Source: Marsupella aquatica (taxonomy: Eukaryota; Plantae; Marchantiophyta). From it: a DNA stretch of 64,000 nucleotides. Location of the stretch: NCBI GenBank assembly GCA_973895155.1, contig OZ316896.1, positions 4,593,925-4,657,924 of the forward strand, in the 5' to 3' direction. The notes under the pieces were generated by a model that was not told the DNA's origin, did no database searches, and saw only the letters and a program-made list of their open reading frames with translations. Position numbers and translations under genes: made by a program. Positions 527-54,363 of this stretch are shown here, one piece after another (position 1 is the first letter of the stretch; the number at the start of each line of letters is the position of its first letter).

Positions 527-3500
527 GTTCCGGGGGTTACAGATCAAGGTTTGAAAGCACGACCAATGCGAAGTGCTGGGGTGGTAGGAGGCGGCTTGAT
601 GGGGTCTGGCATCGTCACAGCAATGGTTCTCCAGAAAATCCCTGTAGTTCTCAAGGAAGTCAATTCAAAAGCTCTGGAGTATGGAATGAATATGATAAAA
701 GGTTGCTTTCTTGTGGGAAAGTATGCTCCAAGTGATTGATGTGAAGTGGTGTGTTTTTGCATTCAGAGTTGCACGTGTCTTATTGCTAACATGCCAAACT
801 TGCCAATTCTGGGTAATGTGCAAAAGTGGCCTCTCCATCTGATATCTTCTTTACTTGACTTTGACTTCAGCCAACGTTGAAAATCGGGCAGCAAGAGGTG
901 GTTTTTCTGCACAGAAACTGCAAAGCACTCTAGCCCTTGTCAAAGGCACTCTAGACTTCAGAGACTTCAAAGACGTCGATATTGTCATCGAAGTAAGTTG
1001 GGCACTGAAACCAGGCCGTTTAGAAGTATTGGTGGGCCTGCACAATTTCATTTGTATTTCTCTGAAGGCAAATTTCTCTGAAGGCAAATTTGATCTGTTC
1101 TTGATAGCTGTGACTTTGGTTGAAACTCCATTAGTGATAATTCCTTGGTAATTGAGTGCTGATTTCTCTGGAACGTTGAGACCATTTCGGTTGCGGTGAA
1201 TGAACCGCTGGAACCGAAACTAACAAAAAATCTGTGGCGCACTCATCATGGAAATTTTAGCGTATATTTCTTAACTGGACCTGGTAGATAGATATACTCC
1301 CGTAGTATACAACCTATGAATAACATAGTGAATACATTAATCCAAAGTTTTATTACGCACAGGGGTGTAGCTAGAGAACCTTCCAGTCTATCAGAGAAGA
1401 ACTGAGATAGTCAATCACAAAGGGTCATTGACAATTCAAGTTTCAACTGGCTAATTTGACCAGTACTGGCTCCATGAAAGTGGAGGAAGACATTTTGAGG
1501 GAACGCATGAAATAGTAACTTTGGGTATGTGGGAATCAATGTTCAGGCTGTATTCGAGAGTGCGGAACTAAAGCAGAGTATATTTCAAAACCTCGAGAAG
1601 CATTGCAAACCTGATTGCATCTTGGCAACAAACACGTCTATGATCCTTCTCAGTGATGTTGGGGCAACGACCCCCAACAGCAATCACCGGATGGCTGGCA
1701 CTCATTTTTTCAGGTATTGCTTGCTAGATTGTTCAATCTGATCACAGAATTGTCAAACTTAGGTGTTCTTCTTATTAAAGATTAGCACTCGGCCTCTTGA
1801 CTGAAAATTCACTATTTGTGTTTCTTATCATTAGACAACTCAGGAACTTTGGGTAACCAGTTGTTTTGTTGACCAATGTGTTTGTTTCTGGGTGGGCAGT
1901 CCTGCACATGTGATGCCGCTGCTGGAGCTTGTGAGATCTCAAAAAACATCCCCTCAAGTCTTGTTGGACCTTATCAATTTCGGAAAAGTTCTCGGGAAAA
2001 CACCCATCGTAGTAGAAAGCTCCGTTGGCTTCGCTGTCAATCGTGTTTTCTTCCCCTATTCAATTGCTGCAACCTTCGTTGCAACCGAGCTTGGTGTACA
2101 TCCATATCGAATCGATCAGATTCTTAAGAGTTTTGGAATGGCCATGGGTCCTTTCCGGTACTTTCCAAGCTTGGAAATCATCTTCTTTCAATTATATTGA
2201 TTTAGTTTTTGGTTTATCACCATAAAAAAACTGGTCAGGAAAAAATAAAAGTTGATGTAGATTGTCGAAAGGTAAATTAGGAACAAGAAGGAAAATATAG
2301 TCAGCCAAAACTTAATCACGAGTAAATTTTTGATAGTACATCCTTCCCTTGGCAAGCTAACTGATCCTTCGTACCCAGCTCATCCACACCAATTTGATGC
2401 ATTCCAAACCTTTTTTTGGATCTCATCCTTTCCTCGTTGCCTCCCAATAGCTCGAATGACATTTTTGAGTTTTTCTGTTTCTTGAAAATTAGCTGCCTTA
2501 AGTCGTGCCTAACTGCATTTGCCTCTACCTGCAAAATGCATCTTCTATGCACACAGAATGCGGTAACTCATATGTGGAATCTTTGGCTGCATCTGGAAAC
2601 AGCATGAGTGATATGGCTGGAGTTCAAATTGAAACAGCAACAAAGCAACTATGGTCCAGAACTTTCCCAGACCGTGTATACCGACCTGTGGGTGGTAGTC
2701 TTGACACGTTGCTCGTTGAGCAACACCGCTTGGGTTAGCGAAAAAGTTTCAATGTATTTGCTCTTGTTTTAGACAATACTACTCAATTGCATGAAATTCT
2801 ATTGGTGGTCTTATGTTCGTAGCAAATGCCATTGGATAGCTGGCCTACAACGACATGGAAGTCCAAAAAAAACCCTTACGACAATGTGAGCTTGCACCCT
2901 TGTTTCTCCTGTTAGCTTCTATCTAGAATGTCATAATGTGTCGCTCATTACCATAGCAAATGAGTGCCGATCATTCCTTACATCTCCTATTTTTCTATAG
3001 AAATAGACAAACGTCTCTAATGACCAGAAAGCTTCGTCTGATCGGTTACTCTTGACCCTTGCACGTCTTTATTATGTTATTGATTACAGGGCATGACAAT
3101 TTCCCAGTAGACGTGAAATTCTTTCATTCTCTCTTTTCCTTATTTGTTTGCTATCAGTTCATTGCACTGTGACGATTAATCTGCCAATCGGACTTTAGGA
3201 AGATTCTTAGGTGTGGTAGTGGTTTTTTGTGTAGGTGAGAAGACATGGAAAGGTTATTACAACTACCCACAAGGCTCACGAAAAGAGCAGCCAGCTCCGG
3301 AGCTTGAGGAAATTTTAGCAGAGTGTCGGAAAGCTAAAAGTTTTAGTCCTGATCTACAGGTCTGGCCAGTACCCAGCCGCAACAATGAAAGATTCTATTC
3401 TGTGCAGTCCTTTATCTTGACTCGGGTATCCTTGCACGCTTTTGACTTATCTTTCTTAGTGAAAGGTTTTTTGGCGAAAACACATATTGGAGACATACGT

Positions 3501-6541: not shown

Positions 6542-6940
6542 GACTGTATCCATAGTTGGGGCTAACTTTAGTCACTAACTTGGTTAGGTTAGTCATGCTA
6601 CACACTATATACTCAAGTAGTTTTTGCTTGGACTGTAGCCATAGTTAGGGCTAACCGTAGCCACAGACTTGGCTAGTTTAGTCATGCTGCACATTATATC
6701 CTTAAGTAATGTTCGCTTGGATAGTTGGAACTTGGGCTCATTGTTACAGAACCAGTTAAGAAATGACTAACTTGTATTGCAAACTTGGTATGTCCGACAT
6801 ACCTAGAATGCAGTAACTTTGCTTTTCCTCCACTATACTTTGTTTGACACTTTTTAGTGTTGCCATTTTGGACCCTAGAATGTAGTAACTTTTGCTTTTC
6901 CTCCACTATACTTTGTTTGACACTTTTTAGTGTTGCCATT
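6542..6940. repeat. Two local tandem duplications (~89 bp x2 and ~72 bp x2)
   Basis: gactgta(t/g)ccatagtt(g/a)gggctaac...gtcatgct at ~6542 and ~6631; cctagaatg(c/t)agtaacttt...ctccactatactttgtttgacactttttagtgttgccatt at ~6802 and ~6874. Confidence 0.75.
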
Positions 6941-7037
6941 ATGGGCTTCTTCTGACTTTCCTTCATTGTACTTCGTTTTGTTCCTTTTCATAAGGTTCTT
7001 TTCGTAACCTGGTACTTTTCTCACTTTATGTATAGGA

Positions 7038-7182
7038 TAATCAGGCTTTAGTCGCCTGTTACCAGGGAGTAACGGGGCGACCAAGTTACGACCGACCCGC
7101 GACCGGCGGAAGCCGGGAGCGTGTCGGGAGTAACTTGTGAGCCCCGGTTAATCCCGGTAACAGGGGTGCTAAATCCTGATTA
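7038..7182. mobile_element. 145-bp mini-unit bounded by inverted repeats related to the ends of the adjacent tyrosine-recombinase element
   Basis: Left arm 7038-7063 taatcaggctttagtcgcctgttacc; reverse complement of right arm 7156-7182 is taatcaggatttagcacccctgttacc. The core is GC-rich with several GTAAC/GTTAC motifs. Confidence 0.6.
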
Positions 7183-7292
7183 ATTAACGTGCGTAATCAG
7201 GTTTTAGTCTGCAGTTTACCAGCAATCACCAGTGCAGCCAATGGGAGCGGCGCATCAAACATAAATACAATGCAAAGCTGATGAAGGTGCTC

Positions 7293-7577
7293 ATTCGACG
7301 GATTGCACTTGCGGGGGAGGGCGCTAGAGCTACTGAGCTTTGCTCTGATCGCGTGTTGTTGATGGCGTTGATCCTCTGTGATCTTTAATTTTTTGTTGCT
7401 ATGGGATGTTGCCATTCAAATCAATTGGATTTCTGACGAAGACGCTTATTCGACGGATTCAACTTTTGCTTTCTTGGGAGGGCGCGGGAGCTACTGATTT
7501 ATGCTCTGATTTTTGTTGATGGCGTTAATGTTGAGCTGTGATTCTTTGCTGTGGGATGCTGTCATTCAAACCAATTC
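7293..7577. repeat. Diverged ~155-bp direct repeat (2 copies) in the 5' region of the YR element
   Basis: attcgacggatt...gggagggcgc..gagctactga..tgctctgat..gttgatggcgtt...gggatg.tg.cattcaaa.caatt at ~7293 and ~7448. Confidence 0.7.
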
Positions 7578-7862
7578 AATGGCGCGGTTGTGTTTTCTTT
7601 ATTTTGAAATTTCTTATCCAGGGATTAGTTTGCACGCAAGTGGACAGGCGCTGCTCATTGATCCTCTGTGTGTGACAGGATTTCAAACGGACGAGCGGGG
7701 AAATCAGCAAGGACAACTTACGTTGCGTTCAAGATGGACAGGTCCTTTATACATGCGGAATGTTCCTTGCATTTCGGTTTAGAGGTCTTTGCTATGACGG
7801 ACCTTGATAGTTTATATCCGCTGACCTCATTTTCAATAATCACTGCATCTTTGCAAGTCGAG

Positions 7863-10122
7863 ATGACAGAATGCCAGGGGGCTGTAATTGGAGTGAGTCC
7901 CGAAGATGGAGAGGAAGACGAGAATGACTTTTTATTTTTTGATGAAATTGAGGACCTTCAGCTGCCTAGTCTAGAAAGTATTGTTGATGATTCGTCTGTG
8001 TGCAATACTCTTAGTAATTTTCCTCATGCTGAGAGCGAGGACGATGCTCCTGTTGCTTGTGAAGTTCCTGGTAGTCATCCTGTTCATGTGGCCATAGATA
8101 ATGTCGGACCTTAGGGGGAAGTGTCATCTTTGGAAGTTACCATACCAGGCTTAAGGGCAGTTCCAGATAAGACGCTTCATGATGCTGGTAAAGGTGAGGA
8201 GAGGCAAGCTTCAGAACGTAACGATCAGTGGGCTCTGAAACGAGCAAAATCTCTTCGGGCAGCTAAGGGGTGGGATATGTCTGTATCCCTCGGCGACCTA
8301 TCATTGCAACTCCTGGATGAGCTATTCAGCGATTTGTTTAGTAGGGCAGTGAAAGTGAATGGCCAAGATTACCCCAGTGCTACCTTGATGAACATGTGCA
8401 ATGGATTCAACCGGTTAATCAAACGGTCAAGTGAACTTAGATCTCTTAGAGGGGAAGGGAATCTAATCGACACAACAACATTTAACATTAAAACACGTAT
8501 GGTCTTGCGGGCTGCTATCAAGAAAGCTTCTCGAGAAGGCAAAAATAAGAAACGGAAGAAGGTGTGTACAATGTTATTTCTGTGGCTTTTGTGTTTCTTT
8601 GTGTTTGAATTTATTAGTGTTCAAGGTTGACGTTATTCATTGTTTGTTTATGTAATGCAGGTGGAGACCATTACGGAGGAGATGGAGCAAGCAATACTAG
8701 CCGACATTGATCACCAGATTAGTAGTGCACATGGCTGCCAGAAACGTCTGGCATTTTACTTCTTGTGTCGTCTAGGGATCCGGGGTGGTAAAGAGCTCTG
8801 GCTCTTGCAGAGGAATGACATACGCGTGGAGAGTACGAAAGAATACGTGCGATAATGGCCCCTGTAAATTTCTGTATTTGTTCCACCCATGTTTCCGTCA
8901 TATGGCTGAAATAATGTCCTCAACCCTTGTCGCAGCTGTAGACGGGGGACCTGCGTAATCTTTCAACAATAGTCAGTAATTGCTAATCTTTTGAGAGTTT
9001 TTTTGATTTACAGATTCGAAGAAAGAGAATCAAAGAATAATAGTATGACATTGGACCGATATTCAGAACACCAATTTCGTAACGCTTTCCACAGCTTCGA
9101 GGCTGATTTCATTCTTTGTGTGAAACAATATCTACGTCATATGGCTCCGGCCCAGGAATGCAAGAAGCAAGATCTTTTCATGCAACCTATTACTAACCCT
9201 GCAGGGAACGTCTGGTATAATAAATGCCACAAAGTAGCACAAGATCGCACAGGGCATATGCTCAATAACATGTTACAGCTGGTAGGGCTTCCTAAAGATT
9301 TGTTTACTAATAAGAGTGGTCGGGCGACTCTGATTACGCGTATGGCAGCAAAAGGTGTTCCTGACGAAGTTGGCATGCTTGTGACCGGGCACCACACGAC
9401 TAGTGGATACTTGAGATATGATAGGACCCAAGATCTTAAGCAGGACGCTGCAACCTTAGTGGGATGTAACTCTAACTTGAGTTACGAGAAAGCTCTGACG
9501 GAGGTTTCTAAGCAGTTCTACAGTGAGAAGGTGGCAGGGAGTGGTGTAGCATTGAACCCTCTCATTGATAGAGTCAGTGTACAGCGTAACCTTCAAGTAG
9601 CGATCAGTCCAGAATTGACTAAGGTATGTACTTGTGCATAATGTTTCAGTCATTTCTGTTTGTTGATTTGTGATTTGTTTGTTGATTTGTTTTATGTGCA
9701 CACTCTGATTACAGGATACGGGCCAATCTTCAAAAGCAGATGAGGATGTGGAGATCAAGATCGAAGTTCAAGTTAGTACTATGTACATGTCTTCTCTGGT
9801 TTTTCATTGCCGCTTTTTACTTGCAATCTTGTTTTCAGATGATATAAATTTAACATATGTAAGTTGTTTTTTCTTGCAGAAATCTAAGAGCGTATCAAAT
9901 GATGGGACTATCTTGACAGACGAGCAGAATAAACGTGTTATTGAGTGGAATAGGACGTTTGATGAAGTCGACTATGTTGGGGAATTGAGCAAGAATCCGA
10001 CTCTAGCTGGTTATTTTGCAGCCCAGTCTAAGGCAAAGAGTGTATCGGTGGGGAACAGTTTATGTGGAAACTATAACAATTGCACGATCAATTTCATAGT
10101 GAAAAAGGATGACGATGCTTAG
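7863..10122 (+). pseudogene. Intron-containing tyrosine recombinase of DUF3504/Crypton type, disrupted
   Basis: Exons 7863-8561, 8661-8851, 9014-9623, 9715-9771, 9880-10122. Motifs: KVNGQDYPSATL, LGIRGGKE (catalytic R at 8781), EYVR|FEERESKNN, VWY, FTNKSGRAT (R at 9321), VTGHH (H at 9390), YLRY (Y at 9417), C-terminal GNYNNCTINF. In-frame TAG at 8112-8114 and an apparent GT>AT donor mutation at 8852. Confidence 0.82.
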
Positions 10123-10482
10123 AAGTAGAATAGTAGCAGATTACGTAGTCAATTTTTTAGGATAGTAGAGATTAGACTAAAGTCATGTGCATTTCACTAG
10201 CTGAATCGAACCTTCAGCTGAACAATATGTCGGATGTACTGTTTTTTCGGGTGTAACATTTTCATGGGTTCACATGCCCCGTTCATTTCAAGAAATTGGC
10301 ATTTTACATAATGAAGCTTCTCTCTTCTGTGAATTTTGAATGGAGTCATGGATGTCGGGCATGGATCTCTCTCATGCAGTCGCTAGTATGCTATTGTCAG
10401 CCAGTTGTGTTGAACTATGTAAATAAGAAAATTAAAAACAGAGAATTGCATCAATTGGCTGCTGGAGATGAATGTTGTCGGT

Positions 10483-10699
10483 AGATCACGTAGTTTACCG
10501 TTGCTGGATTATATGTTACTGTAGCTAGATTACAAGTTACCGTCAAGTGATTACAATCTACCGTCCCTAAATTATGGCTTACCGTTGATCTCATCCCCAG
10601 ATTACAGCTTACCGTTGATCCCATCCCCAAATTACAGCTTACCGTTGGTTTCACAAACAGATTACAATGTGACCGTCAATTTGGGGCAAAGATTACAGG
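10483..10699. repeat. Subterminal array of ~9 GATTACAnnTTACCGT-like motifs
   Basis: Units start at 10484, 10507, 10528, 10549, 10570, 10600, 10630, 10660 and 10691 (spacings 23, 21, 21, 21, 30, 30, 30, 31); the last unit is partial. Confidence 0.8.
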
Positions 10700-11071
10700 A
10701 AATAACATATACCACGGAAAAGTAGATACACAGGTAAACTAAAGACTAAACCCTGTTTACGTTGTTTTAATTTACTGTAGGCTTTTCCTCTCCATCGTCG
10801 ACCATAATTAACTTCCAGCGGTATGGGAAACCACAGTCCGTGTAGAAGAATCTACGGCTACAGTATCCCCCGAGAATAAAGAGTTCTGTACCAAGATTGA
10901 AGCCGTCAGATCGTGAGCACAGTCTGGTCGAGTCGTGGAGAGTACAAGCCGTTTGTCGACCCTCAAAACCGTCAAAGATGTTCGCTCCAGTCCTCTTCTT
11001 CCGTCGTTTGAGAGAACAGGATTTCACCATCTCGTTCCTTTTCATCTTCTCTTTCTCGATTTCGTCATCAC

Positions 11072-11178
11072 ACTTTGCATCTCCTTCGTGTCTTCTTGTC
11101 CACTTTATTGAAATTGGAAATCCCACTTTGCATCTCCCTCTTGTCGTCTTGTCCACTTTATTGAAGTTGGAGCTCACT
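11072..11178. repeat. ~54-bp tandem duplication
   Basis: actttgcatctcc...tcttgtccactttattgaa(a/g)ttgga occurs twice. Confidence 0.65.
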
Positions 11179-12642: not shown

Positions 12643-15600
12643 TTAAGATTTGTTGATATTGGGTCGTCTTCCTCCAGAGTCTGGATTGCCGCTACTGCTC
12701 CACACAGTGGTCGAAGTCTGAGAACTGTTCTTCGAGGGGTCGAGTTCAAACAACGAATCTTCAGACCTGGGATGATCCTCACGCAAATCTCCGCTGTATG
12801 CATCAGCGGTATCAATCCCATCCTCAGTCTTGCAATAGGCCCCTTTCCACAACTCCTCCAGCTGAGTTACGACCTCTCCAATTGTTGGCCTTTCGTCCGG
12901 GTTGTCCCGGCAGCACACCAGTGCTAATCTCGTGATGCTGTCCATTGCTCGATGGGAATACGACCCTCTGATCCGGAGATCGACCATCCTCGCCAACGCT
13001 CCCTGATCATAAGCGATGTTCACCTCCCTCACCAAATTCTTTCCATCTGAGATGGGCTGCTCGCCAGTCACCAACACCAGCAGCACCACTCCGAAACTGT
13101 ACACATCGCTCTTGTCAGTGAGCCGATGGGTTTTGAAGTACTCAGGATCCAGATAACCAGGAGTCCCCTTCACCACAGTGGACACATAGCCCACCATGCC
13201 ACCCAAATCTGGCTGTGGAGCCAGCTTAGAAAGACCGAAATCCGCAACTTTAGAATGGAACGATTCATCAATCAAAATATTACTCGCCTTAATATCACGG
13301 TGATATATCGGTGGGTTAGCCTGCGTGTGAAGGTAGTGTATCCCTCTGGCTGAATCGAGAGCGATTTGGAGCCGGGTGAAGAAGGTAAGAGGAACTCTCG
13401 CTGCAGGAGACAAATGCCATAACAGAGAACCATAGGCTACGAATTCATAGACCAGCACCTGCTCGCCCTGGTCATTGCAATAGCCGATCAGAGCAACCAG
13501 ATTTTTATGGTGAACTCGGGACAGCAGCTGGATCTCGGTCTCAAACTCGATAGACCCCTGGTGAGAGCTCGCCTCCGCACGCTTGACAGCAACCTTCTGA
13601 CCATCCTCCAATGTCCCGCTGTACACCTTGCCATATCCCCCCTCGCCTACAAGTCTCTCATCGCTAAAGTTATCAGTGGCCTTCTCGAGCTCTTCCAACG
13701 TAAACTCCTTCACACTGGCCACCTTAATGCCCGAGAAGCTCCTCCTCTTAAAGGTGGACTTCTTCCCTCTATATTTGTGGTCAGATTTCTCGTTCTTTTT
13801 CCGGCTCGAAATCAGCCAGTATTTCAGCATGTAATACATACACACGGTTTTGAGCACCACGAATGTCAGCACTCCTACCACAATACCAACGATTGCTCCC
13901 TTTGATAATCCATTCGACTTCCCTTTTGAAGCCATTGGCAAGAAGGAAAACGAAATCAGGTCATACGGTCCCAAAAGGTTACTGCTCGGGAGCTTCCAAT
14001 TGGCGAAAACGCTGTAGATCCTGGCCGCTTCGCTGCCATCAAACTGTGCTCCAGGGGGGAACAAGAGGATCGTAAAGAGGAGCTTGTAGCCCGGCTGGTA
14101 AACGTAGCTTTGTACCTGGACCTGATTGACGTCCACATTCAATCCAATAGCAAGATAGGCTTGAAGTTGCGGCAGGTAGGGGTCTACCAGATAAAAGCTT
14201 GGACTCGTGAGCTGCCACTGGACGGTGATGGGCACGGCACATCGGCAGTCATTTGGTGAGGATACGCCGGGGACGAGAGCATATGGAACTTTACATGCAG
14301 CAGAGCAAGTGTTCTGGTACGAGGACTCCAACGGAGCGGATATGACTCCTCCAATGTCCATATAGGCAGCAATGTCTCTAGGAACACACAAAACATTGTT
14401 CTGCTGTGAAGCACTGGTGCTGCAGAACGGATTGCCATATAACCAGACCGACGTATTCCCATCTGGGCCCTTCTCACCGAGCAGGTTCGTTGTGTTGGCC
14501 ACGCTGGAAATATAATTTTTCTGGAAGTCGAAAATGGTGGACTGGTGCCCATTGCTACTCAAATTCGAAGGTATCTGGCCGCTGATACGGTTCCCCATCA
14601 GCTCCAAGATCTGCAAAGACAGTAAGGAGCCCAACGACTCTGGAACAGTCCCCGAAAGGCTGTTGTGAGAAAGGTCAACGGTGGTAAGGTTGGGAGACAT
14701 GGTGGAGTTGGTTATGGATCCAGTGAGTGAGTTGTGACTCAAGTCGATCACTGCCAGCGAACTCGATCCACTAAAATCTGGGATGCCTCCCGTCAGATTA
14801 CAGTTCCTCAAACGCAAAGTCACCAAATTCGGCATTGTCCCGAACTCTACCGGAATGGAATCGAAATTGTTGTTATCAAGCTGGACGGCCACCAAGTTTG
14901 GCATGCTGGCAATCTCTACGGGCAAACTCCCTGTAAAGTTATTGCTGTCCAGAAACAAATACTGAATGGTCGTCAGGTTGGTGAGACCCACAGAAATGCC
15001 GCCGTCCAAAGAATTGTTATTCAGCTGGATGTGCTGAACGCTGGCTAGATAAGGATAGGCAAATGTGTCCGGGATTTGCCCAGATAGGTTGTTGTTGTCG
15101 ATTTGAATTCTGATGAGGCTCGGGAGAAAACCCAATTCTCTGGGCAGTGGTCCGCTTAATTGGTTTCCGCTCAGGAGTAAGAAGCTCAGACTTTTCAATT
15201 TGCCAATGGCTACTGGAATGCTCCCTGAGATTTGATTCCACATCACATTCAGATACTTGAGAGCTGACAAGTCTCCAACTTCTGCAGCTAGGCTCCCCTT
15301 CAGATTGAGCTCGAGTAACCTCAGTTCTGTAACGTGTGAGAAGTTGCTGCCCGTGAGGTCGCTGGGGTAGTCCGCTGAGACACAGTACACTCCGACCCAT
15401 CCATCACCACAAGGGTCCCCTCCTCCCCAGTTGCTCAGACTCTTAGAACTGTCAACCACGCTGTTCTTGATAGCCTGGAGAGCAGTAATATCTCCAGGGT
15501 ATGTTGTAGATGACGCAACTCCACATAAGATGGCCAAACTGGAAATCCAGAAGATGTTTTCGATCAATTTCCGATCCGTGAGCACTCCTTTACTACATCC

Positions 15601-15645
15601 TCGTCCTGCCATATTGACGAGTTCAGTCCTGCCACCCCAAAACAT
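12643..15645 (-). CDS. Leucine-rich-repeat receptor-like Ser/Thr kinase, LRR-VIII-1 (At1g06840/HPCA1-like) type, single exon
   Basis: 1000-aa uninterrupted ORF: signal peptide, LRRNT (WGGGDPC..W.GV.C), plant LRRs (LSGxIPxxL), Cys-containing juxtamembrane region (C..PY..VP....CRCAVP), TM GAIVGIVVGVLTFVVL, intact RD kinase (GEGGYG, VAVK, HRDIKASN, DFG, GTPGYLDPEY, SDVYSFGV). Start may be ATG 15645 or 15612. Confidence 0.95.
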   Translation of the reverse strand: MFWGGRTELVNMAGRGCSKGVLTDRKLIENIFWISSLAILCGVASSTTYPGDITALQAIKNSVVDSSKSLSNWGGGDPCGDGWVGVYCVSADYPSDLTGSNFSHVTELRLLELNLKGSLAAEVGDLSALKYLNVMWNQISGSIPVAIGKLKSLSFLLLSGNQLSGPLPRELGFLPSLIRIQIDNNNLSGQIPDTFAYPYLASVQHIQLNNNSLDGGISVGLTNLTTIQYLFLDSNNFTGSLPVEIASMPNLVAVQLDNNNFDSIPVEFGTMPNLVTLRLRNCNLTGGIPDFSGSSSLAVIDLSHNSLTGSITNSTMSPNLTTVDLSHNSLSGTVPESLGSLLSLQILELMGNRISGQIPSNLSSNGHQSTIFDFQKNYISSVANTTNLLGEKGPDGNTSVWLYGNPFCSTSASQQNNVLCVPRDIAAYMDIGGVISAPLESSYQNTCSAACKVPYALVPGVSSPNDCRCAVPITVQWQLTSPSFYLVDPYLPQLQAYLAIGLNVDVNQVQVQSYVYQPGYKLLFTILLFPPGAQFDGSEAARIYSVFANWKLPSSNLLGPYDLISFSFLPMASKGKSNGLSKGAIVGIVVGVLTFVVLKTVCMYYMLKYWLISSRKKNEKSDHKYRGKKSTFKRRSFSGIKVASVKEFTLEELEKATDNFSDERLVGEGGYGKVYSGTLEDGQKVAVKRAEASSHQGSIEFETEIQLLSRVHHKNLVALIGYCNDQGEQVLVYEFVAYGSLLWHLSPAARVPLTFFTRLQIALDSARGIHYLHTQANPPIYHRDIKASNILIDESFHSKVADFGLSKLAPQPDLGGMVGYVSTVVKGTPGYLDPEYFKTHRLTDKSDVYSFGVVLLVLVTGEQPISDGKNLVREVNIAYDQGALARMVDLRIRGSYSHRAMDSITRLALVCCRDNPDERPTIGEVVTQLEELWKGAYCKTEDGIDTADAYSGDLREDHPRSEDSLFELDPSKNSSQTSTTVWSSSGNPDSGGRRPNINKS

Positions 15646-16989
15646 CCCTAAAGTCCCCTACGGAACTTGTGCTCTCATGATTAGTCCGGAAAATAAGGTA
15701 AGTTTGAGATTTAGCATCGACAAACTCGTTCTGGTCAGATCAAGATTTGGACGAAGGACAACTCTAGCTTTCTGCGATCAGTGACAGAAGTGAAGTCCGT
15801 TTAGCCATCCTCCTCCCAGCGACATCAGGAAACCTCGCAGTATCTCCAATTGAACTAGACTTAAGTCTAACCACGCATCTTTTAGACAGGCTGACACTGT
15901 CTTGTAAAATTTCAATCGGGCGCCTGCTGAAAAGGAAATTCTTCTGCTTCTCTAGCTAGGTGGCTTCTGCAGTCACTGAAAACGGGACTGCATACTGCGC
16001 TCTGCTCCTTGGAAGGTCTCGTTCTCAGAGGAGATGCGAGTCCACCTGTACGGAAGGCAACGCAATGCTGCTGGTCAGCAAGTACCTCTAATAATTTGAA
16101 CATCCGCGCTTGAGTCCATCGGAATGCTAGTTGCACCTGCTCCGAGCTCTCGTCGGGTTTCAACTGGGGATGACTGTAGTGAGCTCATCACGCTCGAGTC
16201 CACATCATCCATGAGTGTTTCAAGGAGAAGTGGTGGTAAGGACATGGATGCCGCGAAAGAGTAATCACTATTTGTCCATTTTTAGTTTTAGCCCAATCGA
16301 GATAATAGCATGCTAGAACTTTGAACGGTGGGGCGGGTGGCCCCAGCCCATTGTCAACATGCGGCTAAATGGCACAACAACTGACGACACCTCGTCACAC
16401 ACCAGCAGGAGTCCAAGTGATGTCATCTAACGGTTTCAGCTGTCGAGAGCGATGCTTCTACCGTAGATTCTCTTACGTGAATACCCCGGAGGTCGAAATG
16501 CACAGCAACGGGGTGTAGGGTGAGGCCAGAAAGACAGCCCATTCCTTTCATGTCAACCGTGTAACGAAAGTAGAGGAATGCAAACCAGAGCGGCGTCAAG
16601 CTGGGGCGCTCTGATTTCCTACGATTTATCATTATATAATCTTGGCAAGCAATCACGAGAGGCCTCTGACCAGAGATATTGCGAATGTCTCACTTGACAC
16701 AGCGGAAGCCTCGTTGGTTGCATCTTTGCATGCACTGGGTGGAGCGCGTATGACCATGGATTAGAGAGCCCTGCGGTCACTGTGTACAACTGGGACGATC
16801 ACCTAAGCATCTCGTGGGATCTGGAATGTTGTCGCAAGCGATGAGAAGCAAGTTCAATTCTTACATTTTACTCAAACATGACCTGGCAAGTACTTTACAG
16901 TTTGTCCAGTTCTTAGAAGAAAACAAAGGTGACTAAAAAAAAACCTTGCAAGGAATGGATTCATCATTATTCACAATTTGTCCCCACCC

Positions 16990-17149: not shown

Positions 17150-17550
17150 AGGGGCATCGCATGTCTGGCCATGGCACCTCCAGAGTGCAACGGTCTGTCT
17201 CCGTGCCCAACCCCCAATGGAGAGAGGGGGGAGGAGAGAAAGGGGACGGACATGGGCGAGAAGGAAAAGACGAAGACGAAAAACACAGGCTCCTTTCCTT
17301 GCCAGTCCCTTGCCTACTCCTTTCCTTCGCATCCCTCCTCGCCTGCACTCAGAAGCACCATTGAAGGTGGACCAATGCTCGGGTAGGGTGTGGGGTAGGC
17401 CGTGGGGAAAGGGAGGCAGCATTCTTTTCTGTTCCGCCCTTTCCCTCCCTTTTCTCTCCTCCCCCTCCCCCATGGGCAGTGGGTGGGGAGGCAGACCGTC
17501 TAAAACTGACCAAGGCCCTGCGGGCAGGCCATTGGGCAAGCTTTAGGAGG
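17150..17550. repeat. GC-rich fold-back (imperfect long inverted repeat, MITE-like)
   Basis: acggtctgtctcc...ggggaggagagaaagggg (~17190-17245) pairs with cccttttctctcctccccc...ggaggcagaccgt (~17445-17500). Confidence 0.55.
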
Positions 17551-26324: not shown

Positions 26325-27020
26325 CGTAAACTCGCTCACTTAGCTATTGACCTTAACTCACTTACTCAACTCAAATCCGTCACTCACCTAGCCCTATCAT
26401 TTATTTCATGATTTAACTCATGACATTAGCTCACTCACTCGCATGAACTAAACCGCCACTGTCACCAAAGCAAAAACTGGTGGGTCCAGGTTACCATACA
26501 TAATAAAAATGTTCTTAACAAAGTATAGAGTGGGCAAACAGTGTGACTGTTTTGTCCTCCCATAGCTCTTCAGGACAGTGGCACTTTAAGACCGGTGACT
26601 GAGTGACTATCGCGAGTTAAGGTATTGAGCAAACTCACACAAGTGACTATCATGAGTTAAGGTCATGAGTTTATCTGCTGAGTGAAGGTCATGAGTTCAG
26701 TGATTTAAGGTATCGAGTTAACTCACACATTCAGCTCATAACCTTAACTCATTCAGTTAATAAACACTCAACCCTCAAGAGTTAAGTGATTGAGTGACAA
26801 TCATGAGTCAAGTGATTGTGTGACTAGCATGAGTTAAGGTCTTGAGTTAATTCACACATTTACCTCATGACCTCAACTCACTCAATTAATGATCACTCAC
26901 CCTCATAGTCTCATGAGTAAACTAAGTGGCTAAGTGAACTTCATGAGTCAAGTGAATGAGCCAAGGTCTTCAGCTAACTCACTCAACTGATGACCTTAAA
27001 TCACTCACGTAACTCACAAA
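26325..27020. repeat. Degenerate ACTCA/TGAGT motif array in both orientations (probable DNA-transposon subterminal or MITE sequence)
   Basis: Many ccttaactca, catgagttaaggt and gagtgact motifs in alternating orientation blocks. Confidence 0.6.
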
Positions 27021-44814: not shown

Positions 44815-45725
44815 ATTAGGGCCTTTCAATCAAAATTTTGGAATACTCCAGCCAACTTTGTAGGAGTAAATGAATTATTTTTTTCCTAGTACATTTTAAG
44901 GGGTCTAAGGCATCTAAACATTGCCTCAGGGGTCTCACTGTATGGATGCCTCCCTATCACCTACAATGTTTTTAGACCTTGGGTCCCCTAAAATGTAAGA
45001 AAAAAATTATTTTAAAACCCATATAAAGTTCCTTTGGAATATTCTTGGATATTCCAAAAATTGGATTGCAAAGACACTAATGTTCTTATAAGTCCTAATG
45101 TTCTCATATTTCTCTAGGGATCCCATGTTTTTCTCAATGGATAATGATAACTTGCTTGAAACTAGGGTTGAATAGTACCAATTCCCCAACCAATTCAATG
45201 GGATCCATGGATCCTATTTCTCAATAACTCCAAAAATTGGCATTCAAACCCAGTCTTGGGCCAGGTACACAACTCCCCTTTTGTTAAGACAAGTTTTTAA
45301 TTCCTTATAATGGGCATTATATCCAATTGATCATGATAAACATTACCAAACTGATGCAAGGAATCCTAAAATGAAACTTTAATAAGATGTTTAAAAAATG
45401 AACATCATTTGATCATACCTACCATCAGCCAGGTTGGCGACGGGGTTCAAAGTCTGCCCCTTCCTCAACCTGATCTGGGGATTCTGTGATTCCACAACCT
45501 GGAAAGCCATGGCTAGCAATGGTGGGAGACTGGATGTTAGCTCGTTCACCACAAATTGCATGCATGCTCCGGGGTCTCACTATATGGATGCCTCCCCATC
45601 ACCTGCGACGTTTTTAGGCCTCGGACCCCCTAAAATGTAAGTTTTTTTGTAACCCCTATAAAGTTGGAATATTCTTGGAATATTCCAAAATTTTGTTATA
45701 AGGACCCTAATGTCCTTATAAGTCT
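44815..45725. repeat. ~150-170-bp module in two direct copies plus one inverted copy, within a degenerate repeat region
   Basis: ggggtctcact.tatggatgcctccc.atcacct...cccctaaaatgtaag...tggaatattcttgg..tattccaaaa at ~44929 and ~45571; inverted version (ttttggaata...tacatttta.ggg) at ~44835-44925. Confidence 0.6.
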
Positions 45726-48067
45726 CACAATTTGATTAAAAAAACCCTATTGTTCTTTTCATAAAATTCTTAAGTTTTCCCTTTGAACCAATAAAATGAC
45801 CCTATATTTCGTTGCACATGATATGCCATTTTGGTGGAATTGAAACCCCCGAACATGCATGCGATCAAACAAGGGGCACATCTTGTCTAATTTCTGCTCA
45901 ATGGTGATCCCACACTATATCTGGTCCTCAAATAAACCCCCTCCTTAAGATTTTTTAGCATCAAAGTCTCTTTGTACATATCTTGGTATCAACCAAAGTG
46001 CTTAGCTAGATTAGCACCATCCATCTTGGGGAACCTGTAATCAGCCCGGGAATCAGCCAGCACAGCAGCCATGGAAGTGAATGCAGATTGCTTGCACTGA
46101 TACCAATTACCTTGCCTCGTTCGTCGACCTCCCCCAAAGATGGCATTATAGTTATCCTTAACCCGGGTCCTAAACCTTTAAGTAGCCAATAATCAAAGTG
46201 TAATCTTTACATGTCGATTATGCTTAAAATTTAAAAGCCTGATCCATGGTTACCTGAGCCTACTCCTCGTGTCTACCTTGGGTTGCTACCATTGATAGCT
46301 GGATGTGCAGGTGCCTGCAACACAAAATTTCCTTGTGATGTTAAATCTTGTTGGGAATCTTGTAGGGATGCAGGCTGAATCAGTCACGCGTGGTGGGATG
46401 AAACCTCGCCCTCCCATGGCAAACCCAGGGGCAGACCTGGCATGGAGCACTGTTCATAGAACAATGCCCTCACATGCATCACTCCAAGTTTCTGCAGGAA
46501 TACGTTCCATCTCCATATTAATACTGCAGCACACCTCGCACTGAAATCATCAGGTTCAAAAATTGTGACAGATGCAAAAACTAACTTGGTGCGATGGCTC
46601 CCTGTTCAAATTTGAAGTGAGTGTGGTGTGAATATATACAGATAGGAGCGTCATGCGGGGTGTAGTATGCATATATACAGACAGAAACGTCACGCAGGAC
46701 GTTTCAGAATCAACTTGATGCTGCGTCTAGCACGTGTACACGCAGCACTTTGTCATGGGCCATAAAAAAACTCAGTGGGCAACAATATCCAAAATCCGTC
46801 ATTTAACAGAGGCGCGGCACAAGTTTTGGGCACTAAGTCCCGGCCCTATATTTGAGAGCCCCTATTATTTCTGGTGAAATAGCCTGTGGTGGCTACACCC
46901 CTAATTAGTTAGGTATACTTTGGGGAATTGTATAGACTGGTAACTACTTAAGATATCCGGGGCTTAAAAGGTAAACAGAAACATTTGATTACAAAAGTTT
47001 TGTTACAATCACCATCAATGAGGAGCTAGACGACCAAATTTATTTTAGGTTTTTGAATTCCTGAACAACTTTTCTGTCTGTCTGATTGGTATTCATATTC
47101 CGCAATATCTAAACAGATACTTGCTATATCTTATTCCAAATGCCTTGTCTTGCTGCATGCTTTACTATATATAAGAAACGCAAACCAAAAACCTCACATA
47201 ATATATTTGCAGGTACATAGGAATTAAATTGAAACTTTTGTCCAACACTGTCTTGCCCATATAAATTCTTGCAGGATTTCTTGTCACCAGACTCTGAGCT
47301 TGGTTTCTTTTTAAATCCTGAACGTCCAATGACTCACTGTCAGTAGTTTAGAAGCATAGTTTAAACAGTTTCCTAACAAGCCAATTCTTTCCTTTTTCCA
47401 TGAGAGATGTCAAAGTTAGGAGCCCCACAAGTAGCACAGATATGCAGACCTTCGCCAAACATATGTAGGTACATACTCAATTTAGGTTCAAATCAAATCT
47501 TTGACAGGATGCCCTTACCTGTGATTCCAACTGTCTATGGAATCAGATTTTACTTTCTCTAATAATTTAAGAAATTATTCCACAACTTTAGCACTTCTAG
47601 TTTGGCACTATGGGAGAAACCATGTAATAACTAAGTTAAGCATGGCGGCATTATTTAGATCTCAAAGTTAGAAAATCATTTTTCAAACTTAAACAAGTGC
47701 CAAACTTCACTTCGACTGCCGGTCCCTTTCATACTAATTCAAACGAGTGTAATGTATGTATAAATAGTAGGTAAACCTAAAGCAACAAAACTGTGGGGTG
47801 CTATGAAGAAATGCTACTGTAGCAAGCTAGGGCTAATTTCATTTTTGTGCTGAGACATGCTGCAAGTCATCATTTATCTTTAACAATATGCATGCGGCCT
47901 CTGACTTGGGTTCTAGTTGGAGCATTCAAAAATTAATACACTAATGTACAACTACATCTACATCAACTATAGTAACTATTGCCCGTCATCTTTATAGATC
48001 CGTACTTCTCCGAATAGATTTAATTAATTTCACTGTACATAGGAAAGCAAGCTTCACTTAAAACTGG

Positions 48068-48230
48068 GCATTTACTCAGTATTGAAATTTGAGGTTTAAA
48101 AAAACCAAACTAAACTAACATTCACTCAGTTCGTATCTAAATTTGAGATTTAAAAAAAACAGCCTAACCTAACATTCACTCAGCTCGTATCGAAATTTGA
48201 GATTAAAAAAAAAAAACACTAAACTAACGT
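48068..48230. repeat. ~50-54-bp tandem repeat x3
   Basis: catt(t/c)actcag...aaatttgag.tt.aaaaaaa..ctaa.ctaa. Confidence 0.7.
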
Positions 48231-50148: not shown

Positions 50149-52329
50149 TCAGGACATACAATCACTCACCTTATGACTGTTGATGAGGAAAATCAGTTTC
50201 TTGTCCAAACCATCGAACTCTGAGATGTTTAATGTTTCAATCCGCTTGCTATTATACAGCCTCTTTAAAATTTGCACCTTGGCAATCTCGAACGGGTCCC
50301 TTGTTTCAGGAGAAAACATTGGCAGCTTAGGTTTAATTTTTCTGTATCGAGCCTTTGTAGTCGGGTAACTTGCATCGAGAGCGTCCGGGAGAGCGTCCAA
50401 AGTCATCGCTTGGGGGCTCTGTAGTCCTACGCTAGTTGGGTGACCTCCCGGGTAACCTACACGGGATTCACTTGCAGTTGTGCCCGCCCAATCATGAACT
50501 GAACTTGAATCTGATTGCAACGGTAGAACAGCCCTAGGTACAGCAACAGGTACCGTGGTTCTGCTGCTAAGGTTAGAATCCCACGTTGCAATGGGAGAGT
50601 CCAGATTCATGGCTTCTTCGCTGTCGTCTAGGCTCATATTGGCATCAGAGAAGTCAGAAATAGGAGATCGAAATTCTTCAGAAACCCTGGCTGGAAAGTA
50701 CTGGCTTGACGGGACCACATTGGATACGATAGCGAAGTCCGATTGCAAGTCAAAGTGTCCTTCCGCACCCTGCACATTCCTCTGAATGAAATCTCCTTTC
50801 TTTACTTCCTCTGCTACTAAGTTATACATCCACTCGTCCTCGCCGTTTGAGAGCTCACTTGGGATTTCTGCACCTACGTTGTTGACAGTGTGGTTGGTCT
50901 GGCGAAGTTTAGAAGCAGACTCACGATTCTCCAAGACAGTACTGTGCTGAGAAGATTTCAAAGTGGCATGTGCCGATGATGACTGTATATAATTGTCACA
51001 GGCATCAAAGAAGTCGGAAATAAGAGATCGCGTCGACTCCCAAACCCGGGCTGGAAAATGTTGGCTTGAAGAAAACACATTAGATACAATAGGGAAGTCC
51101 GGTTGCAAGCCAAAGTGCCCTTCCAAACCCTGCGGACGGGCCTGCGGGTTCCTTGGAATCCAAGCACCATTCTTCACGCCATCTGCTAGTGCTTGACCTA
51201 GCGAGTCCTGGTCTGTGCCGTCTGTGCCGTCTGTGAGGTTGAACTGGTCACTTGGAATTGCCTCTTCAATGTTGCTGTCTGTATGGTTGGTTGCGTGAAC
51301 TTGGGCAGCAGAGTCAGGAATCTCCAAGACAGTACTGTGCTGAGCAGATTTCAAAGGGACATCTGCCGATGATGACCTTATCTGGTTGTCACAGGCAAAG
51401 AAGTCAGAAACAGGCGATCTCGACTCCTCGCAAACCCGGGCTGGAAAATGCTGGGTTGAAGAAATCACATTGAGTACTCGATGGGCCTGCAGATTCCTTG
51501 TAATCCAAGCTCCGTTCCTGATGCCGTCTGCTATTGCTTGACCTAGCGAGTCCTGGTCTGTGCCGTCTGTGAGGTTGATCTTGTCACTCGGAATTTCCTT
51601 TTCCATGTTGCTGTCTGTATCGTAATTGATTGCGTGAACTTCTGTGCCGTCTGTGAGGTTGAACTGGTCACTTGGAATTGCCTCGTCCATGTTGCTGTCT
51701 ATATGGTTGATTGCGTGAACTTGGGCAGCAGGGTCAGGACTCTCCAAGACAGTACTGTGCTGAGCAGATTTCAAACGGAAATCTGCCGATGATGACCTTA
51801 TCTGGTTGTCACAGGCATCAAAGAAGTCAGAAACAGGAGATGTCGACTCCTCGCAAACCCGGGCTGGAAAATGCTGGCTTGAACAAATCACATAATTGAG
51901 TACTCGATGGGCCTGCAGATTCCTTGGAATCCAGGCTCCGTTCCTGACGCCGTTTGCTAGTGCTTGACCTAGCGAGTCCCCTCCCGTGCCGTCCGTGAGG
52001 TTGATCTTGTCACTCGGAATTTCCTTATCCATGTTGCTGTCTGTATGGTAATTGATTGCGTGAACTTCTGTGCCGTCTGTGAGGTTGAACTGGTCACTTG
52101 GAATTGCCTCTTCCATGTTGCTGTCTATATGGTTGATTGCGTGAACTTGAGCAGCAAGGTCAGGACTCTCCAAGACAGTACTGTGCTGAGCAGATTTCAA
52201 ACGGAAATCTGCCGATGATGACCTTATCTGGTTGTCACAGGCATTAAAGAAGTGAATAACAGAAGATCTCGATTCCTCACAAACTCGAGCTGGAAAGTGC
52301 TGGCTTGAAGAAACCACATTCGAGACCAC
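50149..52329 (-). CDS. Uncharacterised acidic Ser/Asp-rich protein built from ~130-140-aa tandem repeats; upstream part (to ~53030) is frameshifted
   Basis: 726-aa ORF with repeated SSQHFPARVCEESxSPVSDFFDACDNQIRSSSADFRLKSAQHSTVLES and INxxDSNMxxxIPSDxxNLTDGT units; basic C-terminal segment and probable donor AAG|GTGAGT near 50170. Degenerate units continue to ~53000. Confidence 0.5.
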   Translation of the reverse strand: MVSNVVSSSQHFPARVCEESRSSVIHFFNACDNQIRSSSADFRLKSAQHSTVLESPDLAAQVHAINHIDSNMEEAIPSDQFNLTDGTEVHAINYHTDSNMDKEIPSDKINLTDGTGGDSLGQALANGVRNGAWIPRNLQAHRVLNYVICSSQHFPARVCEESTSPVSDFFDACDNQIRSSSADFRLKSAQHSTVLESPDPAAQVHAINHIDSNMDEAIPSDQFNLTDGTEVHAINYDTDSNMEKEIPSDKINLTDGTDQDSLGQAIADGIRNGAWITRNLQAHRVLNVISSTQHFPARVCEESRSPVSDFFACDNQIRSSSADVPLKSAQHSTVLEIPDSAAQVHATNHTDSNIEEAIPSDQFNLTDGTDGTDQDSLGQALADGVKNGAWIPRNPQARPQGLEGHFGLQPDFPIVSNVFSSSQHFPARVWESTRSLISDFFDACDNYIQSSSAHATLKSSQHSTVLENRESASKLRQTNHTVNNVGAEIPSELSNGEDEWMYNLVAEEVKKGDFIQRNVQGAEGHFDLQSDFAIVSNVVPSSQYFPARVSEEFRSPISDFSDANMSLDDSEEAMNLDSPIATWDSNLSSRTTVPVAVPRAVLPLQSDSSSVHDWAGTTASESRVGYPGGHPTSVGLQSPQAMTLDALPDALDASYPTTKARYRKIKPKLPMFSPETRDPFEIAKVQILKRLYNSKRIETLNISEFDGLDKKLIFLINSHKVSDCMS

Positions 52330-54363
52330 ATTGAATACCCGACGGGCCTGATTCCTTGGAATCCAAGCTTCGTTCCTGACGCCGTCGATCTGCTAGTGCT
52401 TGACCTAGCGAGTCCCTCCCGTGCCGTCCGTGAGGTTGAACTGGTCACTTCGAATTTCCTCATCCCTGCTACGGCCTGGCCCGCTGCATGATCCGGTAAC
52501 CTCCAACAGATTTATGAATCTCCAAGCCGGTGTCCTGTGCACATTGGATAGTCACATCTGATCGACGACCATGATGACCGTATCTGGTTGTCACGAGCAT
52601 CAGAGACGACGTGAGAGATAGGAGATTCAAATTCTTCAGAAAAATAGGAAGTGTAATTAAGATGGCTCAAAGAGATCTCGTCGGACTCAAGCGAGAAGCC
52701 CAGCGCGCGTATGCTGAACGACTCTTCCACACCCTGCTCTTCTTCATTGGAAACAAAATCCGCACGCGCTTTCCATTCTGCTACTGTTACTTCTCCTACT
52801 AGCGAGTACAGATGTGAGCCTTCTGAGAGATCGAATTCAGCAGCTAACATGTCCAGTTTCGTCTGGGTCTGGTTAGCTTTAACAGCGACGTACTTCTTGA
52901 CTCTCCAAGACCATATGCGGAGCGGACTTCAAAGTCAGATCTGGAGTGGACGACATCTATCTGGCTATCAGTTCCACCAGGTTTTACTTCATCTCTCGAC
53001 AGTCTGTAGACTCGGGCAGTCAGGTGGCGGCCACGATATATTTAATTAGGGTTTACGTTAATGTAGATCGCCGGATGTTGAGTGATTAGTACATGTGAAC
53101 CTTTCAGATAGTTTGCTAACAATCTTCATTTTTAGATGATAATCAATTAGACAAAGATCTTAGGATAGATCGACATCACATGAACCAATTACTAGCAACT
53201 GCCAATTGTCCCTACAATCTCGATCATGCGCTGTCATTTTCTAGCTATCAGCTTAACACTGCGTTAACCCTAAACCCATGAAAAAAACGTCGTTGCCTTA
53301 ACAGTGATCGCCCAAAGATAGATTAATCTAGAAGTTATTACAGTCGATAAAACAGAATCCGATGGAGCAGTGGCCAGCAAATGCTACATAATTACGGGTC
53401 TCGTCCAGATCGACAAGTCTATAGATGCAGCAATGAAGCTATACTTGCACCTGTCGACAATCACACCTTATCAACACCGTTTTGTACTTAGTTGCCAGGT
53501 TGATGGTACGTACAGCCATGCCGCCACTAACTTCGGGCAGCATGCACCTTTCCGCTAGTTGAGGGACGGAGGGTTTATATATTGAATCATGCTTGAAGGA
53601 CGACATTTGTAATAACAATTTGTGAAAGTAAAGATTGGGAAGGAATTGCCTTCGAGCAAATTCGGCAGGCCGAAATACAATCTCACTAACTCTCCTGCCT
53701 CGGCCCAGAAATCTGCTCATTACCATGAGAACTTTACTTCAGCTGTTCTCCACGTCAGTTGCGTTAGGTCTGGTAAGCCATGCCTCCTGGTTAAAAATTC
53801 CAAAGTCTGTTCCAGATCGAGTGATTGCCAGTACTTCTTTTGCCAGTTGGTTTGGGCCTGAACCAGCCGTCACCTCTCGATCCTCAAAATCTGCCACGTG
53901 TTTCAAATTGATTGGTGGGCATTGTTTAGCTCTCCACCTGGGCTTGTCAAATTTAGGGTTTTCGACTTCTAAGTTGCCATGTACCTGATCCGGTGCAATT
54001 TGTCACGTAGTACAGTGTTTGTGTTTATCTTCCCACTGATACTCCACACTTCCTTCCCGTTCTTTCAGCGTATTTAAGGAACAATCAGGTACTATCATCC
54101 GCATATTGCATTCTCGTTCTTGCTGCATGATCCTCGCCCGCTACATTTTGTAGCTGGCTCTCTTCCGTGGCTTGGTGGAGTAGTTGTTAATTTTCAACAC
54201 TATCTCGTTTGTCGTCGCACTGTTATATGTACAGGTTTCGTTTTGTTTTTACTCTCTCTTTCCCATCAGGTAACTACTGCAGTTCTTCTAGGTAGCTATA
54301 TACAGACTCGTTTGGCTTCATTGCTTACTTGGGATCGAAAGCTAAGCAAACCTGAAAATTACA

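Follow-up and report, generated by a model that had tools for sequence, protein, structure and literature searches.

The window analysed here is a stretch of 64,000 nucleotides from the liverwort Marsupella aquatica (contig OZ316896.1, positions 4,593,925 to 4,657,924 of the forward strand), and it contains a tyrosine recombinase (YR) gene with a 3-hydroxyacyl-CoA dehydrogenase gene on one side and a plant leucine-rich repeat (LRR) receptor kinase on the other. Our results indicate that positions 7038-10761 of this 64-kb window are likely a broken copy of a DNA transposon of the Crypton/DUF3504 lineage. The unit is 3.7 kb long, carries one gene and has the same GC content as its flanks, and its gene-bearing part between inverted repeats spans 3.57 kb. 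As a whole, the locus is best explained as a Crypton/DUF3504 transposon with an integral hairpin, a reading that we hold with somewhat better than even confidence. The initial annotation had proposed a plant YR-transposon lineage. The DUF3504 recombinase, the land-plant clade and the dispersed copies described below bear this out, but the window copy is dead and the unit probably starts at 7038 rather than at 7192.

The gene encodes a predicted Cre-like recombinase

The closest named relative of the window gene is P0001 of the liverwort Calypogeia fissa (49% identity, E 1e-148). A model of P0001 based on a 94-row alignment was confident over approximately residues 190-575, with 320 residues at a predicted local distance difference test (pLDDT) score of at least 90; the single-sequence model gave a pLDDT of 32.6. 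Compared with Cre, the alignment-based model yielded a Z score of 18.9 and a root-mean-square deviation of 3.6 over 300 aligned residues. XerA, XerH, IntI4 and others were the next structural matches, including the Tn1549 integrase (Z 13.3) and QRICH1 (Z 11.5), and the top rows of a Foldseek search were Cre/Tre. These data suggest that the YR gene encodes a Cre-like tyrosine recombinase, as predicted from the modelled homologue. When exon 3 or the close alignment served as query, sequence searches of the PDB returned chance-level matches only, and a BFVD search returned only distant phage and nudivirus integrases with 9-17% identity. The HMMER and structure checks that had been suggested for this gene gave a divided answer, with no significant Pfam match for the window exons and a Cre-like fold for their homologue.

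The lineage of the recombinase was indicated by three lines of evidence. The Riccia member P0092 passes the Pfam cut-off for DUF3504. With a wider profile, the E value was 1.7e-13 for QRICH1 and ranged from 1e-4 to 5e-3 for integrases. In the Atlas, the top clusters for P0001 were DUF3504/Phage_integrase (score 0.98), and P0001 adjoins mollusc and cnidarian DUF3504 clusters. The assignment of the window YR to the DUF3504/Crypton lineage, first made from its motifs, is therefore supported.

All protein motifs listed in the initial annotation were found at fixed coordinates, and the expected catalytic residues R...K...xxxR...H...Y are present in the window copy as R-K-K-R-H-Y. In terms of the R-H-R-Y tetrad, both Arg residues and the Tyr are present, and the His position of HxxR is occupied by Lys. 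Among the 83 non-outgroup rows with a residue at this position (isoforms and near-duplicates included), 79 have Lys (66 rows) or Arg (13 rows) and none has His, which is found in 10 of the 15 outgroup rows. Topoisomerase IB and protelomerases likewise have Lys here. By analogy, activity of the family despite the Lys is plausible.

The window copy carries three lesions

The YR gene comprises five exons on the forward strand. Exon 1 (7734-8561) encodes an acidic N-terminus and a predicted core-binding domain, and its start is uncertain (ATG at 7734, 7794 or 7863). Exon 2 (8661-8851) contains the first catalytic Arg codon (8781-8783, in GIRGG). The catalytic domain is encoded by exon 3 (9014-9623), in which comparison with homologues and the fold of P0001 located the Lys (9033-9035), the Lys at the His position (9312-9314), the Arg (9321-9323), the His (9390-9392) and the Tyr (9417-9419). 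A 57-nt mini-exon 4 (9715-9771) is predicted from AG/GT sites and reading frame, and exon 5 (9880-10122), assigned by homologue comparison, encodes the C-terminal NNCTIN followed by the stop codon. The splice acceptors are AG in all four cases, and a C-x-V/I-x-I/V motif similar to NNCTIN lies at the end of nine of the ten homologues checked. Moreover, among 156 homologues, many of them exon-sized, 17 begin within profile positions 210-219, 13 stop within 210-217 and 10 stop within 155-162, pile-ups that coincide with the places where introns 2 and 1 lie.

The five-exon structure proposed initially thus stands, with its AG acceptors, but the gene is not intact. An in-frame TAG at 8112-8114 interrupts exon 1 where six homologues align across. 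The first in-frame ATG past this TAG is at 8277, and a start there would cut into the folded domain. The donor after exon 2 is AT (8852-8853) instead of GT, at a point where a homologue reads ..EFVR|FEER..; alternative in-frame donors were rejected, being weak GC sites or crossing stops. Finally, a 21-bp deletion near 8485 removes seven residues that P0001 and P0004 have. With this stop codon, lost donor and deletion, the window copy cannot make the enzyme, as judged from its reading frame.

The family is dispersed across seed-free land plants

A profile of 11 close sequences matched 784 proteins at E ≤0.001, with 150 among the matches listed. Thirty proteins were looked up by name, and 14 of these had a species, to which cluster members and P0190 were added. 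Named members came from liverworts (five proteins of C. fissa, and Marchantia polymorpha, M. paleacea and Riccia sorocarpa), a moss (Ceratodon purpureus), ferns (six proteins of Adiantum capillus-veneris, and A. nelumboides) and lycophytes (Selaginella and Diphasiastrum). No named seed-plant member was found among the proteins looked up by name, which are a minority of the rows. UniRef labels the Marchantia protein as DUF3504-containing. Our searches of the Crypton/DUF3504 literature yielded no description of land-plant Cryptons; inverted or hairpin ends in CryptonA/V or plant elements may already be recorded in Repbase Reports or Dfam. Four long uninterrupted members from metagenome or Logan contigs (P0020, P0022, P0028 and P0163) have the full R-K-K-R-H-Y set and may represent intronless subfamilies or else transcripts.

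A tree was built from 46 rows that cover at least 200 core positions, with isoforms dropped. It placed all named plant rows in a single group of 32 rows, split from 14 strong-DUF3504 rows with 100/100 support, and a 34-row mixture-model tree gave the same separation. In C. fissa, P0001 and P0018 are 92% identical and lie on different contigs; in Adiantum, P0025, P0161 and P0162 are 98.6-98.7% identical and lie on three contigs of 161-178 Mb. Such near-identical copies on different multi-megabase contigs are expected of a mobile family. They differ from the single-copy conserved gene that the initial annotation had considered as a counter-explanation, and the plant contigs that carry the relatives measure 5.8-178 Mb, which argues against contamination. 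The annotation had also left the lineage as either ancient or horizontally acquired. Since C. fissa subfamilies share 34% identity, and such deep splits within one species suggest a long history in land plants, the evidence speaks for a lineage that is probably ancient in land plants rather than one acquired recently by horizontal transfer.

Retrotransposon functions do not accompany the gene. Elements of the DIRS, Ngaro and VIPER types link reverse transcriptase (RT) and RNase H to the YR, whereas Pfam families for RT, RNase H, gag or transposase matched none of the 65 window open reading frames (ORFs) of at least 95 aa outside the two large YR exons, nor any of the five pieces of the YR gene itself, in agreement with the earlier claim that RT and gag are absent. 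Among 45 homologues, one (P0105) has an RVT_1 tail, placed after the normal C-terminal region. We read it as a gene-model fusion.

The element ends share one motif

The gene is enclosed by a left inverted repeat B (7192-7220, forward strand) and a right inverted repeat B' (10733-10761, reverse strand). The 25/29 match between them, reported before, was confirmed and exceeds that of all 1,000 control pairs that were matched to it in size and spacing and taken elsewhere in the window, the best of which reached 21/29. The gene does not, however, sit alone between these repeats as had been stated, since a 145-bp hairpin composed of arm A, a loop and arm A' (7038-7182, forward strand; 77% by self-BLAST) adjoins 11 bp to the left of B. 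The motif TAAWCAGGnTTTAG lies at both ends of the hairpin, and its only exact matches in the 64 kb are at +7038, -7182, +7194 and -10759, all in the YR locus. Arm A resembles B over about 49 nt, a likeness that is weak towards approximately 7242 and reaches the CCAAT box (7238-7242, forward strand), a putative promoter element just inside the left repeat. The 11-bp spacer between A' and B (7183-7193, no strand assigned) was defined from the sequence, and A'-spacer-B may represent an inverted-arm (lox-like) site.

Further repeats occupy the non-coding parts of the unit. In the 5' part, 7278-7576 (forward strand) contains a direct duplication that is degenerate (about 150 bp, 72%). Subterminal repeats of TTACCG/GATTACA units with 21- and 30-bp periods lie at 10495-10690 (forward strand) and are similar to the terminal repeat in its inner portion; this region has the top TTAC and TTACC density among 250-bp windows in the 64 kb.

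Two boundary models fit the ends. In the first, TA is duplicated at all ends, at 7194-7195/10758-10759 and 7038-7039/7181-7182. In the second, which concerns the gene-bearing part only, a TAATT direct repeat lies 8 bp further out. This candidate 5-bp repeat (7181-7185 and 10768-10772, forward strand) occurs at one of 13 symmetric offsets and, with one copy, is indistinguishable from chance, the alternative being the 2-bp TA repeat. Terminal direct repeats of 4-6 bp are a feature of fungal and oomycete Cryptons. TTAA was indeed found outside the ends as first noted, at 7184-7187 (4 bp) and 10767-10770 (5 bp), the left one within the A'-B spacer and 1 bp from the hairpin end. It was not adopted as a target site, being asymmetric and common (291 occurrences in the 64 kb). 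An 8-bp duplication of the hAT type was looked for at the ends and not found.

Under the first boundary model, TA borders A(T/A)CAGG on the outer side of each of the four ends, as expected if the ends belonged to a TA-duplicating family of the Tc1/mariner type that is moved in trans by a DDE transposase, with the Crypton gene as nested or captured cargo. A precedent is MarCry-1_FO, a Crypton-Mariner composite with TA/TIR (terminal inverted repeat) ends moved by a DDE enzyme (PMC3212892); here too, a YR gene lies between TIRs with TA flanks. However, MarCry-1_FO has a DDE transposase besides its CryptonF YR, whereas no Pfam transposase was found in the window element and no DDE ORF inside it or nearby. 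No direct repeat of at least 14 nt brackets the gene internally (shorter ones were outside this test). Moreover, B and B' pair over 29 nt only and do not rebuild a 145-nt hairpin, and the gene with its 5' CCAAT region and its 3' region neatly fills the interval. We therefore regard this explanation as improbable.

The left hairpin has a phased mismatch pattern

The hairpin at 7038-7182 folds with -53.8 kcal/mol (z -12), and none of 200 shuffled sequences folded as well. Its inner stem (7079-7140, forward strand) comprises 35 bp and is closed by a GGAA loop (7108-7111). Eight of its positions are mismatched, and six of these make up three tandem 5'GA/5'GA mismatches spaced exactly 11 nt apart (7079-80/7139-40, 7090-91/7128-29 and 7101-02/7117-18). 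When mismatches were placed at random, three GA/GA occurred in 0 of 10^6 simulations, and any one tandem mismatch type occurred three times in 73 of 10^6. The three 11-nt units have six bases in common, and the other five, the intervening 5-nt blocks, vary yet remain paired. A plain triplication would therefore not account for the pattern. Sheared tandem G·A pairs and GNRA loops act as stabilisers. The phased GA/GA pattern thus points to a single-strand fold. Window-wide, there is no other ungapped hairpin in which the first 5 pairs match and 24 or more of the 35 pairs form, and Rfam gave no match for 6900-7800. The hairpin may also act as RNA, because only RNA energies prefer the forward strand.

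The 145-bp hairpin is likely the left-end structure of the element, and we consider it slightly more probable than the contrary that it is an integral part. Another explanation is that two elements of one YR family lie side by side, the 145 bp at 7038-7182 being a non-autonomous copy and the 3.57-kb part a gene-bearing copy, one of which landed beside the other where the existing end was a good recombinase half-site. Each unit does have its own best-matching end pair and its own TA flanks, and the hairpin stays complete when 7186-10772 is cut out at the TAATT repeat. Non-autonomous Cryptons also exist (PMC3212892). On the other hand, no second free copy of the hairpin is present in the 64 kb, and decay of perfect inverted arms would not give the phased GA/GA pattern. 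The tandem arrangement therefore seems considerably less probable than a transposon with an integral hairpin.

Several observations weigh against a Crypton transposon with an integral hairpin. Neither the window exons nor P0001 have a significant Pfam match, and with HxxR His replaced by Lys, activity of the family can only be predicted. TA at every end is as in Tc1/mariner, with MarCry-1_FO as precedent. The best pairing partner of A is A' and that of B is B', as expected of two separate elements, and the three spacers have no clear homology to each other. DNA energies scarcely favour the forward strand of the hairpin (-53.8 versus -52.6), the preference being clear by RNA energies only (-97.2 versus -85.5). 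Lastly, the ends are seen in one copy only, and five collection scans gave no related locus: none was confirmed among 92 and 304 matches of two pattern scans of metagenomes, 33 matches of a protein scan of viral contigs or 57 matches in prokaryotic genomes, and an end-pattern scan of viral contigs gave 0 matches.

Proposed mobility and comparison with known systems

Because the ends are available from one copy only, both the boundaries and the mechanism are inferred. We suggest that the element was mobilised by site-specific recombination, and consider YR-driven movement with these ends quite likely. In an intact copy, the Cre-like YR would bind the four inverted end arms of the element, recombine the arm-spacer sites at its ends and free the element as a circle, which would reinsert at a short A/T-rich site, neither a DDE transposase nor a reverse transcriptase being involved. 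Excision as a circle followed by reinsertion is the mechanism proposed for Cryptons (PMC3212892). The left hairpin, as a folded single strand, could present a double-stranded arm beside arm B, and an exchange of one strand completed by replication would then amount to copy-out movement.

This last step, the boldest of the proposal, is modelled on integron attC and CTX-phage attP, which are folded single-strand YR sites. Like them, the window hairpin has built-in mismatches, lies beside a YR gene and possibly acts as a folded single strand. In contrast to their extrahelical bases, it has tandem G·A pairs, and it is located at the end of a eukaryotic transposon.

CryptonA elements of animals and the Glomhoppers of Glomeromycota are similar to the window element in having a single YR gene of the DUF3504/QRICH1 lineage with introns, no RT, a size of about 3.5 kb, a similar C-terminal motif and repeated domestication. 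The window element differs from them in its land-plant host, in its clade apart from the 14 strong-DUF3504 rows, in the Lys/Arg of its family for His in HxxR, and in its inverted ends, subterminal repeats and end hairpin. No TIRs are reported for CryptonA or Glomhoppers (PMC3212892; PMC13465315). The element is thus Crypton-like but departs from two stated Crypton features, namely the absence of TIRs and the R-H-R-Y tetrad, and was not filed as CryptonA because of its 29-bp inverted repeats.

The proposed YR-only mobility is a likeness to Starships and to YR transposons of the Tn916/Tn1549 type. For Starships, mobility via a circle is shown (bioRxiv 10.64898/2026.09.21.753150), whereas for the window element a circle is our deduction. 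Moreover, the window element is far smaller than Starships (3.7 kb), with one gene and no cargo, and DUF3435 had no match among 45 + 13 homologues.

Likely domesticated relatives

Two groups of relatives appear to have left the mobile state. Marchantia Mp5g04240 lacks the second His and shares 94.5% identity with its equivalent in M. paleacea (the two proteins are P0039 and P0166). As a stand-alone protein with a degraded catalytic C-terminus, it is a candidate domesticated gene. The second group comprises fusions in Selaginella (P0074 and P0090, two genes), Diphasiastrum (P0079) and the Logan cluster P0096/P0184, in which an N-terminal domain matching PDB 8P26 (E 1e-12) precedes a truncated, catalytically dead recombinase whose profile match to the element is 99.6%. 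We take 8P26 to be Arabidopsis PAXX, although the PDB entry carries another name. In the Atlas, the N-terminal domain matched XRCC4/XLF/PAXX clusters at 0.81-0.86, which are leads only. The PAXX-like fusions are likely a plant domestication parallel to QRICH1/ZMYM. Indeed, ZMYM2/3/4, QRICH1 and KCTD1 belong to the same domain lineage, and the lycophyte fusions lose the catalytic C-terminus like QRICH1. Mp5g04240 and the fusions grouped with 95/91 support in one tree and with a Shimodaira-Hasegawa approximate likelihood-ratio test (SH-aLRT) value of 85 in the other; since this support varies by tree, a single domestication is not established.

The existence of such members in the clade, together with the four introns of the YR gene, would also suit a decayed domesticated host gene with unrelated repeats around it. 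However, the window copy groups in the trees with the multi-copy C. fissa rows and not with Mp5g04240 or the PAXX-like fusions. Unlike domesticated DUF3504 genes, it keeps the catalytic Tyr and the second Arg and has element ends. All its catalytic positions are kept in a copy that is broken, and significant repeats enclose the gene. A domesticated origin of the window gene is therefore very unlikely.

Surroundings of the element

On the left side of the element, exons of the 3-hydroxyacyl-CoA dehydrogenase gene lie at 843-2197 (forward strand). On the right side, an intronless ORF at 12643-15657 (reverse strand) encodes a 1004-aa LRR receptor-like kinase with an ALE2_N-like segment. It is possibly a retrocopy, since similar flowering-plant kinases are intron-rich. 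Two-copy tandem duplications flank the element on both sides (6542-6721, 6802-6944 and 11067-11171, with periods of 89, 73 and 53 bp). Five further inverted-repeat units, possibly miniature inverted-repeat transposable elements, lie at 17190-17499, 26408-27016, 44815-45711, 47635-48173 and 62546-63827, with ends unlike those of the YR element. A 747-aa ORF at 50149-52392 (reverse strand) is built of long internal repeats and has no convincing Pfam match.

Implications

The boundaries and mechanism of Cryptons have been a long-standing gap, for which the window copy provides candidate arms that are defined, along with a spacer and a structured hairpin. For genome engineering, a compact eukaryotic recombinase that resembles Cre and brings its own sites could also be a lead. 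With these results, the DUF3504 lineage reaches into liverworts, mosses, ferns and lycophytes, plants in which most members escape standard Pfam scans. The results also indicate plant domestications parallel to ZMYM/QRICH1, one of them fused to a PAXX-like repair domain. Taking these strands together, we tentatively propose, as a possibility rather than a probability, that ancient YR transposons of seed-free plants may have carried a left phased G·A hairpin that was read as folded single-stranded DNA in an integron-like copy-out movement, and may have been domesticated early, giving rise to the lycophyte fusion of a PAXX-like domain with a dead recombinase.

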